Made by a program: the position numbers and the translations under genes. Of a stretch of DNA of 391 nucleotides, positions 1 to 391 are shown piece after piece. Position 1 is the stretch's first letter; every line of letters starts with the position of its first letter. The notes beneath the pieces were generated by a model. That model had not been told where the DNA came from. It did not search any database and saw only the letters and a list, made by a program, of their open reading frames with translations. This stretch comes from Escherichia coli (GTDB lineage Bacteria > Pseudomonadota > Gammaproteobacteria > Enterobacterales > Enterobacteriaceae): assembly GCF_003334255.1 (NCBI RefSeq), contig NZ_QOWU01000249.1. One strand, written 5' to 3'.

Positions 1-54
1 CAGGAGGTGCCGTCGGAAGATGCCAGGGCTGATAATCCGTTACAGAGGCTGTAA
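1..54 (+). CDS. possible 3' end of an upstream CDS entering from the left (frame 1, ...QEVPSEDARADNPLQRL*)
   Basis: Frame 1 is open from position 1 to TAA at 52-54, and the translated tail has ordinary mixed charged/polar composition. Only 17 codons are visible, so this cannot be confirmed; frame 2 is also open to TGA at 80-82. Confidence 0.15.
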   Translation, partial: QEVPSEDARADNPLQRL

Positions 55-57
55 TGG
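37..57 (+). promoter_or_regulatory. hairpin (9-bp stem incl. one G-U, loop AGG) enclosing the candidate SD and start codon of ORF 54-290
   Basis: CCGTTACAG (37-45) pairs with CTGTAATGG (49-57): C37-G57, C38-G56, G39-T55 wobble, T40-A54, T41-A53, A42-T52, C43-G51, A44-T50, G45-C49. SD AGAGG 44-48 and ATG 54-56 lie inside it. Any regulatory role is inferred. Confidence 0.35.
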
Positions 58-290
58 TTGCCTCCGGAGCAGTTTGCAGTGATGCCTTTCCCGGGAATGG
101 ATTGCCAGTGCGGGGACTGTGGAGCTTAATTCCGGTGTTGGTGGCCTTTCCGTTGATTTTATGCCAACAGCCCCCTGTGACTGACAGGCTGCCTCGTCAT
201 TCCATTCGTATCTCCAGTAACAGGGGGTTGTATTGTATTTTATTGTGCCGGTTCAGATGTGCGTTTCCCGGCGCGTCTGCACCGGCTTAA
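54..290 (+). CDS. hypothetical small protein (78 aa), doubtful; possibly a small hydrophobic peptide, or a spurious ORF over noncoding structured DNA
   Basis: ATG 54-56 to TAA 288-290. For: AGAGG at 44-48 with 5-nt spacer acts as a plausible SD; the ATG overlaps the TAA (52-54) of upstream frame 1 as TAATG; residues 22-37 (LWSLIPVLVAFPLILC) are hydrophobic. Against: 5 of 7 Arg codons are AGG/AGA/CGG; product is Cys/Pro/Arg/Leu-rich with no recognisable motif; the ORF spans hairpins, a palindrome and direct repeats. Confidence 0.25.
   Translation: MVASGAVCSDAFPGNGLPVRGLWSLIPVLVAFPLILCQQPPVTDRLPRHSIRISSNRGLYCILLCRFRCAFPGASAPA
78..96. repeat. copy 1 of imperfect direct repeat (CAGTGATGCCTTTCCCGGG), core GCCTTTCCCGG at 84-94
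   Basis: Matches 254-272 at 14 of 19 positions by manual alignment; the core matches 261-271 at 10 of 11. A shorter third copy lies at 143-152. Confidence 0.5.
88..97. repeat. 10-bp perfect palindrome TTCCCGGGAA; candidate dimeric protein-binding site, function unknown
   Basis: Reverse complement of 88-97 is identical to itself. It sits inside copy 1 of the direct repeat. At roughly 1 in 1024 per position, chance occurrence in 391 bp is not negligible. Confidence 0.4.
143..152. repeat. copy 2 (short) of direct repeat core: GGCCTTTCCG
   Basis: GCCTTTCC at 144-151 is identical to 84-91; spacing from copy 1 is 60 bp. Confidence 0.4.
167..231 (+). other. nested stem-loop: 12-bp outer stem (167-178 / 220-231, CCCCC/GGGGG core) enclosing an inner hairpin (182-188 / 192-199, loop CTG, one bulged C195); candidate structured RNA element
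   Basis: ACAGCCCCCTGT (167-178) pairs with ACAGGGGGTTGT (220-231). As DNA the match is 11 of 12; as + strand RNA the mismatch becomes a G170-U228 wobble, whereas the minus strand would have a C-A mismatch, so the structure is slightly more stable if the + strand is transcribed. Confidence 0.45.
226..247. repeat. T-rich tandem pentamer array GGTTG-TATTG-TATTT-TATTG-TG immediately 3' of the nested stem-loop
   Basis: TATTG 231-235, TATTT 236-240, TATTG 241-245, preceded by GGTTG 226-230. This is the most AT-rich stretch of the window. Confidence 0.45.
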
Positions 291-337
291 CCAAATTCAA
301 CAGGGATAAAATAGTGGTAAGCGTACAGCCTGAACCG
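249..337. repeat. 8-bp perfect inverted repeat CGGTTCAG (249-256) / CTGAACCG (330-337) bracketing 73 bp
   Basis: Exact reverse complements. The pairing does not extend (C248/T338 and A257/C329 mismatch). Could be a long-range RNA pairing or chance. Confidence 0.3.
254..272. repeat. copy 3 of imperfect direct repeat (CAGATGTGCGTTTCCCGGC), core GCGTTTCCCGG at 261-271
   Basis: See copy 1. Start-to-start spacing between copy 1 and copy 3 is 176 bp. Confidence 0.5.
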
Positions 338-341
338 TCTG

Positions 342-354
342 GTCAGAATCTGAC
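342..354 (+). other. small hairpin GTCAG-AAT-CTGAC (5-bp stem, 3-nt loop)
   Basis: G342-C354, T343-A353, C344-G352, A345-T351, G346-C350. Short and of uncertain significance. Confidence 0.25.
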
Positions 355-391
355 GAATTAGACAAAGTGGTGTCCACCAAATAAGTAGTGG

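Follow-up and report, generated by a model that had tools for sequence, protein, structure and literature searches.

The described systems closest to the locus analyzed here include two kinds. The first comprises the Shigella flexneri SRL pathogenicity island (SRL PAI), in which the gene order of our locus is represented by orf34-orf46 (PMC6980539), and the CP4-57-type islands. The second is transcription attenuation and antitermination, of which AlpA of Pseudomonas aeruginosa is an example, as this protein is an antiterminator that lets RNA polymerase bypass a terminator (PMC7969949, PMC9371919). The locus itself is a 391-base stretch of Escherichia coli DNA (hereafter the window, by which we mean the whole stretch), which an earlier sequence-only reading had proposed to be a structured non-coding or leader locus from end to end. 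We consider it likely that the window is instead a composite junction within an SRL-PAI/CP4-57-type genomic island, at which the tail of a zinc-ribbon gene, a leader and the left end of the insertion sequence (IS) ISEc8 meet, the leader being of a kind that is attenuator-like in paralogous islands. The window is an ordinary island seam and not a new RNA system.

Supporting this assignment is the fact that all 391 bases recur with 100% identity at positions 4156003-4156393 of the E. coli ATCC 11775 chromosome and in many further chromosomes of the species. According to the RefSeq annotation the window starts inside the gene for a zinc-ribbon domain-containing protein and stops 18 bases short of an IS66-like tnpA. 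The gene order around it includes Ag43, a YeeP-like GTPase, then, after other genes, an AlpA/Vis-type helix-turn-helix (HTH) protein, Hha, a YfjJ-like "inovirus Gp2" protein and two zinc-ribbon proteins; past the window it continues with IS66 tnpA/tnpB/tnpC, a phytase-like esterase and, further on, fecIR. The bases from 316/317 to 391 match, at 100% identity, the initial 75 bases of the ISEc8 annotated in the Stx2 phage 1717. A 90-base probe centered on the leader/ISEc8 junction was covered over at least 80% of its length in 1,759 of 5,426 complete E. coli genomes, and the insertion of ISEc8 at the leader is an old and widely inherited event. The parts of the window are listed below; L001 and similar numbers are our own designations for loci, L001 being that of the window.

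1-54, + strand: 3' end of the zinc-ribbon gene WP_001221615.1, 17 codons and a TAA stop at 52-54 (RefSeq coding sequence L001 7620-8054).
54-290, + strand: open reading frame (ORF) of 78 amino acids, the longest in the window, judged not to be a gene.
55-313, + strand: intergenic leader, 259 bases, with no coding sequence annotated among the matches listed.
167-231, + strand: hairpin A, arms ACAGCCCCCTGTGACTG and CAGTAACAGGGGGTTGT, followed by a U-rich tail at 228-247 (TTGTATTGTATTTTATTGTG).
210-228, + strand: hairpin T, terminator-like, ATCTCC-AGTAACA-GGGGGT followed by TGTATTGTAT; nested in the 3' arm of hairpin A and found by a pattern scan.
219-224 with 248-253, + strand: alternative short helix proposed by RNAalifold, pairing the 3' arm of hairpin T with the 5' arm of hairpin B.
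247-286, + strand: hairpin B, GCCGGT.CAGATGTGC, an 8-nucleotide loop and GCGCGTCTG.ACCGGC.
275-313, + strand: conserved block, GTCTGCACCGG CTTAACCAAATTCAAC AGGGA TAAAATA, which includes the 3' arm of hairpin B.
314-316, + strand: GTG start codon of the PF27752 / "UCP030791 family putative phage-derived" gene, all that remains of it here; the paralog coding sequences start at the homologous GTG.
317-391, + strand: left end of ISEc8 (IS66 family), its terminal inverted repeat running from GTAAGCGTACAGC...; the tnpA ATG is at 409, beyond the window.

The identification of 194-313 as a leader comes from the paralogous islands. Diverged homologs of window 194-315, with 74-79% identity, were found there directly upstream of a PF27752/UCP030791 gene, and we regard 194-313 as a leader because of its homology to the sequence that directly precedes this conserved gene. 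In these islands the leader is placed between an AlpA-family gene (PF05930, E value 2.6e-10) and an intact PF27752 gene, and it is always fixed directly upstream of the same gene and in the same orientation. The preceding bases, 55-193, are lineage-specific (>95% identity wherever they were found), and 40-200 was found only downstream of the zinc-ribbon gene. The intact paralog gene encodes 165-182 amino acids beginning MQITEALLS..., and its product is variously named in the sources as "hypothetical", "UCP030791 family putative phage-derived protein" or "inovirus Gp2 family protein". This protein had no match in the local Pfam, NCBIfam, PHROGs or PADLOC libraries, and family searches of it and its neighbors (NCBIfam, PHROGs, PADLOC, Pfam and PDB sequences) returned nothing useful except AlpA for the HTH gene. 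Our literature searches found nothing on this leader, on UCP030791 or on the choice of targets by IS66.

Fold statistics locate the structure within the window. Exact inverted matches of at least 8 nucleotides number five, compared with 1.3 +/- 1.2 in dinucleotide shuffles, of which 1.5% reach five. Direct repeats are at the level of chance, the longest exact one being 8 nucleotides, which 67% of shuffles reach. The fold of the whole window is no better than that of shuffles (z scores of -1.49 for the + strand and -0.59 for the - strand), the 55-147 stem is unremarkable (z -0.54) and has only borderline similarity to paralog spacers, and the fold of the ISEc8 end at 317-391 is equally unremarkable (z -0.16). 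Beyond-chance structure is confined to hairpins A and B. Hairpin A has 17-nucleotide arms that are 88% complementary, a folding free energy of -28.3 kcal/mol and a z score of -3.03 on the + strand versus -1.84 on the - strand; for hairpin B the corresponding values are -28.2 kcal/mol and -5.07 versus -19.9 kcal/mol and -2.53, and hairpin B accounts for 70% of the ensemble. The density of hairpins, palindromes and direct repeats on which the sequence-only reading relied is therefore borne out for two strong hairpins and for the excess of inverted matches, and fails for the direct repeats, the 55-147 stem, the IS end and the window as a whole. Likewise, its view of a non-coding, leader-like locus holds for 55-313 but not for 1-391 as one locus, since 1-54 is coding and 317-391 is an IS end; roughly 160-313 is both structured and non-coding. 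We also observed, in the minimum-energy fold of 55-315, a long-range helix that closes over both hairpins, formed by 156-165 and 303-312 (ATTTTATGCC, complementary at 9 of 10 positions to GGGATAAAAT, which spans the Shine-Dalgarno-like AGGGA); by eye it is not conserved in the L003-type leader.

To compare leaders, copies were gathered by BLAST, by exact motif in IMG/VR and metagenomes, and, independently of the leader, via the downstream gene, and 23 distinct ones were aligned. Hairpin B, the most conserved structure of the family, is what 15 of the 17 variants adopt at minimum energy. Its + strand form is the more stable one throughout the 17 (mean -20.1 kcal/mol, versus -14.6 kcal/mol for the other strand), and 88% of its alignment cells are paired; sliding the partner columns gives 23-42%. 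Every leader copy gathered, including the diverged ones recovered via the gene, has the 3' arm of hairpin B, GTCTGCACCG, unchanged; what variation there is mostly consists of C or U facing G in the 5' arm. The whole conserved block is intact in four of the seven gene-recovered loci (L147-L149 and L153), the other three being copies of the window lineage. Within this block a Shine-Dalgarno-like AGGGA lies at 302-306, 7 nucleotides ahead of the start codon. No U-tract follows hairpin B.

Hairpin T has a counterpart in the paralogs, where its site reads C(A/G)CCAG-TCA-CTGGTG followed by TTTGTATCGT, and the pattern of a Rho-independent terminator (a G+C-rich stem-loop with a U-rich tract) was recognized by the same scan at 210-228 and at the homologous sites of L003 (E. 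coli Ch1, NZ_CP127316) and L004 (AH19B041), both of which have an intact paralog. In the alignment 79% of the cells of hairpin T are paired, and its covariation score was reached by 5 of 500 shuffles. Hairpin A is a lineage-specific extension of hairpin T through the pairing of CCCCCTGT with ACAGGGGG. The alternative helix has 90% of its cells paired, three of its six pairs changed on both sides and a covariation score reached by none of 500 shuffles; it competes with hairpins T and B for the CCGGT segment, so that the three helices are mutually exclusive. One of its pairs (A222/G250) is broken in the window. A further candidate, the type-1 hairpin TGACTG/CAGTCA, was rejected as a conserved helix because it was no better than shuffles.

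These observations suggest attenuator-like control of the PF27752 gene in cis, according to the following model. In the paralogs the leader would be the 5' untranslated or intercistronic part of a + strand messenger RNA (mRNA) that runs from the AlpA-family gene into the PF27752 gene. We infer that it is transcribed within this mRNA because no promoter-like site able to serve the PF27752 gene was found: the pattern scan returned none in the window on either strand and none in the L004 leader, and the sole one in L003 overlaps the start codon. This last candidate, a sigma-70 promoter TTAACA-17-AATAGT in the conserved block, was rejected because of that overlap and because it is missing from the other leader types. 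At about 95 nucleotides upstream of the start codon, the transcript would contain the terminator-like hairpin (window 210-228, lengthened in our locus to 167-231), followed by its U-rich tail. Instead of forming hairpin B, the 5' arm of the latter could pair with the 3' arm of the terminator hairpin, which would place the three helices in an attenuator-like order, and the terminator-like hairpin and hairpin B would together modulate read-through, mRNA stability or both for the downstream gene. Judged by family membership only, an AlpA-linked mechanism for the leader would be reasonable. At the window locus hairpin A is probably the intrinsic terminator of the zinc-ribbon operon, and most likely would just serve as such, and hairpin B would be a relic with no gene left to regulate.

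Several points weigh against the attenuator-like model. The pattern with which most leaders were gathered prescribes the 3' arm of hairpin B, and leaders found by BLAST or via the gene likewise have this arm intact. As the arm is invariant, hairpin B draws no support from covariation, and shuffles equal the observed value. The invariance also exceeds what pairing needs and could reflect recognition by a protein or at the DNA level. The L009 type has lost hairpin B and the L012 type has a weak form of it, and the excess stability of this hairpin on the + strand may partly stem from a G+U-rich composition. Few independent changes, in sequences that are related, underlie the covariation of the alternative helix and of hairpin T, and RNAalifold gave a weak consensus of -8.1 kcal/mol with a covariation term of only -0.97. 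Across 100,044 species genomes the search for the downstream gene yielded three loci, of which one was a spurious match to GyrB, and in IMG/VR it yielded one locus; from these searches the PF27752 family appears essentially confined to Escherichia and close relatives, and the power of covariation is therefore limited. That the leader of about 120 nucleotides, made up of the terminator-like hairpin, the competing helix, hairpin B and the invariant block up to the start codon, is an undescribed cis-regulatory RNA switch, for example a target of antitermination by the neighboring AlpA-family protein that controls the PF27752/UCP030791 gene in a large family of E. coli islands, with the window holding a decapitated copy, is advanced as a tentative proposal that we think rather improbable in this specific form.

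Still less probable, in our view, is that hairpin B and its invariant 3' flank act as DNA and not as RNA, either as a site at which an island protein binds or cuts (the AlpA-like regulator, the YagK/YfjJ "inovirus Gp2"-like protein and the PF27752 protein being the candidates, and GTCTGCACCGGCTTAACAAAATTCAAC the candidate site) or as a recombination joint. The pattern of conservation speaks for such a role, as GTCTGCACCG and much of the flank up to the start codon are invariant while the 5' arm varies, and the leader together with the first ~100 nucleotides of the gene is the most conserved piece. A joint is also suggested by the decayed PF27752 copies, in which a shared pseudogene 3' tail next to ilvN'-DeoR-rbsK is joined to four different leader/5' types with differing upstream neighbors (zinc-ribbon genes, YagK, UxaA, acuR/adh); the leader and the start of the gene resemble a point at which islands and a chromosomal remnant have recombined. 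The structure itself points the other way: many stem positions pair only as G-U, so that it is weaker on the complementary strand and as a cruciform in 17 of 17 variants. In addition, no conserved His-hydrophobic-His motif could be read from the protein alignments.

We regard it as very unlikely that an independent RNA acting in trans, either a small RNA or an antitoxin RNA, is encoded in the intergenic region. Strong local structure that is conserved across islands is what such an RNA would lead one to expect, and ProQ/FinO-family genes lie near some of the paralogs. The scan that found no promoter-like site in the window, the lack of a U-tract after hairpin B and the fixed position and orientation of the element relative to one gene all argue against it, as do the searches of families and flanks. 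An Rfam scan of the window (4,227 models, E values up to 10) gave chance matches only and no family, the best, with an E value of 0.19 and 19.7 bits against a gathering score of 45, being to an unrelated eukaryotic long non-coding RNA model. One flank consists of zinc-ribbon and YagK/YfjJ island genes and the opposite one of IS66 tnpA/tnpB/tnpC, none of which are housekeeping genes. No reverse transcriptase or effector gene is annotated within 8 kb on either side, no toxin, nuclease or defense gene adjoins the leader in the flank annotation, and a PADLOC search of the neighboring proteins returned no match. The possibility that the window supplies the RNA partner of a protein system encoded in its flanks consequently found no reverse transcriptase, toxin or nuclease to attach to. 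The part of the window outside the IS had no phage matches, and its plasmid matches were only mislabeled chromosomes or paralogs. The ProQ/FinO-family genes are situated one or a few genes downstream of the leader, on the - strand at L003 4686-5194 and L004 7945-8105, one of them being frameshifted.

Least probable of all is that the 78-amino-acid ORF, or an ancestral form of about 45 amino acids, yields a genuine small hydrophobic protein whose translation is coupled to that of the zinc-ribbon gene by a TAATG overlap. Its ATG does overlap the upstream stop codon as read from the sequence, and its middle (...SLIPVLVAFPLILCQ...) is similar to a small hydrophobic ORF, annotated in some cases, that is located after the alpA-like gene of the paralogs. 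Rare codons, the lack of a family match (Pfam, NCBIfam and PHROG), frameshifts in relatives and the absence of a PGAP annotation among the matches listed oppose it, and the paralog ORF has a start that the window does not conserve. The observation that neither strand holds a long ORF was correct, as was that of poor codon usage in the sole ORF, with 11 of its 78 codons (14%) among the eight rarest of E. coli. One-base frameshifts in a run of C cut it to about 45 amino acids in the close relatives L005, L022 and L023, and its reading frame and C-terminus vary both between close relatives and between paralogs. Based on these comparisons the ORF is not a gene, and the window is not a coding gene that had been missed. 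The hydrophobic ORF of the paralogs (e.g., MKRVAMPALVLRKSALSPMLATLPLIFLLTPLVCQLFVIIS; L007 2870-2995 and L003 3814-3999), annotated in some genomes, is homologous to window ~120-175; its N-terminal ~30 residues are conserved, and its frame and end differ between paralogs. Upstream of the ORF, the zinc-ribbon translation ends ...GRQEVPSEDARADNPLQRL*, which matches frame 1 of the window. In strain LWY6 (L005 3900-4000) an annotated BREX pglX ends in the last ~60 bases of the zinc-ribbon gene as a gene fusion, with the leader directly after it.

Of the gene that an attenuator-like leader would have controlled, nothing beyond the start codon is left at the window locus, as ISEc8 sits immediately after the GTG and the rest is missing. 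Relatives of the window lineage that are free of the IS have a nonsense codon at position 2 of the downstream gene and many more stops, indicating a pseudogene. The leader here is probably a relic, because the gene it served has decayed or been deleted in this lineage. In many E. coli a stop-riddled PF27752 copy adjoins ilvN'-DeoR-rbsK-fucP (L147-L152, ~1230-2320 in each; L005 4250-5068; L022 and L023 4016-4790).

The terminal repeats of ISEc8 begin 5'-GTAAGCG and have GTAAGCGTACAGC in common, the left one starting at window 317 and the right one at L001 10615, with tnpA, tnpB and a frameshifted tnpC annotated at L001 8409-10578. The reference copy in phage 1717 measures 2,442 bp and has an 8-bp duplication, GGTTATCG, on both sides. 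The present copy (L001 8317-10615) is 2,299 bp, 143 bp shorter, and no 8-bp target-site duplication was found at its flanks (AAATAGTG and TTTTGTTC). We therefore conclude that the distal side was rearranged after insertion and that the sequence beyond the insertion point is gone; the missing duplication does not argue against the identity of the element. The fragment that forms the right flank of this copy carries, in strain S88, the annotation of a partial DUF6404 gene.

Other copies of the junction show further variation. Truncated leader pieces, starting from about window 249 or 252, occur between unrelated DNA and an ISEc8 end at L015 1-175, where the unrelated DNA resembles a phage tail gene by eye, and at L141 ~5030-5125. 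We attribute L141 to a local deletion, because its IS copy and right flank are those of the window locus, and co-mobilization, in which ISEc8 would carry part of the leader when moving, was rejected. IS elements have repeatedly hit the first ~70 nucleotides of the PF27752 gene or the bases just before it (window 314-317, L114 ~1057-1090, L144 3500-3530 and hits H183-H185); in L114 an IS66-type end (GTAAGCGTGCAGT) lies 23 nucleotides further into the gene, and in other genomes transposase genes abut it at about codon 23. The start of the PF27752 gene may be an insertion hot spot. An E. fergusonii plasmid carries an ISEc8 copy whose 25-nucleotide left flank resembles another leader type.

The window illustrates that a hairpin-rich, ORF-free stretch can be a mere seam of a gene end, a leftover leader and an IS end. 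The only mildly new item in it is an unannotated, possibly attenuator-like leader family, of which the window copy is a remnant. Conservation of this leader extends over a widespread family of islands in E. coli and Shigella, none of the records found annotates it, and an AlpA-linked attenuator, if true, would offer a handle on how island core genes of unknown function are switched on.

In comparison with known systems, the island shares with the SRL PAI and the CP4-57-type islands (P4-integrase, AlpA, YfjJ/YagK) the gene order from the phytase-like esterase through YeeP and Ag43; the difference is the intergenic leader, for which no annotation or discussion was present in any record or paper found. 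The IS resembles the ISEc8 (L0013-L0015) of enterohemorrhagic E. coli and the SRL PAI in its left end, which is 100% identical, in its GTAAGCG repeat and in the tnpA/tnpB/tnpC genes that follow, and differs in being shorter, having a frameshifted tnpC and lacking the 8-bp duplication, as a fixed and rearranged copy. With retron msr/msd and type I toxin-antitoxin RNAs the window has in common a hairpin-rich non-coding stretch in mobile DNA; unlike them, it has no adjoining reverse transcriptase, toxin or defense gene, Rfam match or promoter-like site. Compared with intrinsic terminators, attenuators and the AlpA-dependent antitermination of P. aeruginosa alpBCDE (PMC7969949, PMC9371919), the leader differs in that hairpin B lacks a U-tract, neither an AlpA-binding element nor a promoter was identified and no leader peptide is conserved in frame. 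What it shares with them is a stem with a U-rich tail upstream of the gene that would be regulated, predicted mutually exclusive helices that share one segment and, in the paralogs, an AlpA-family gene immediately upstream.

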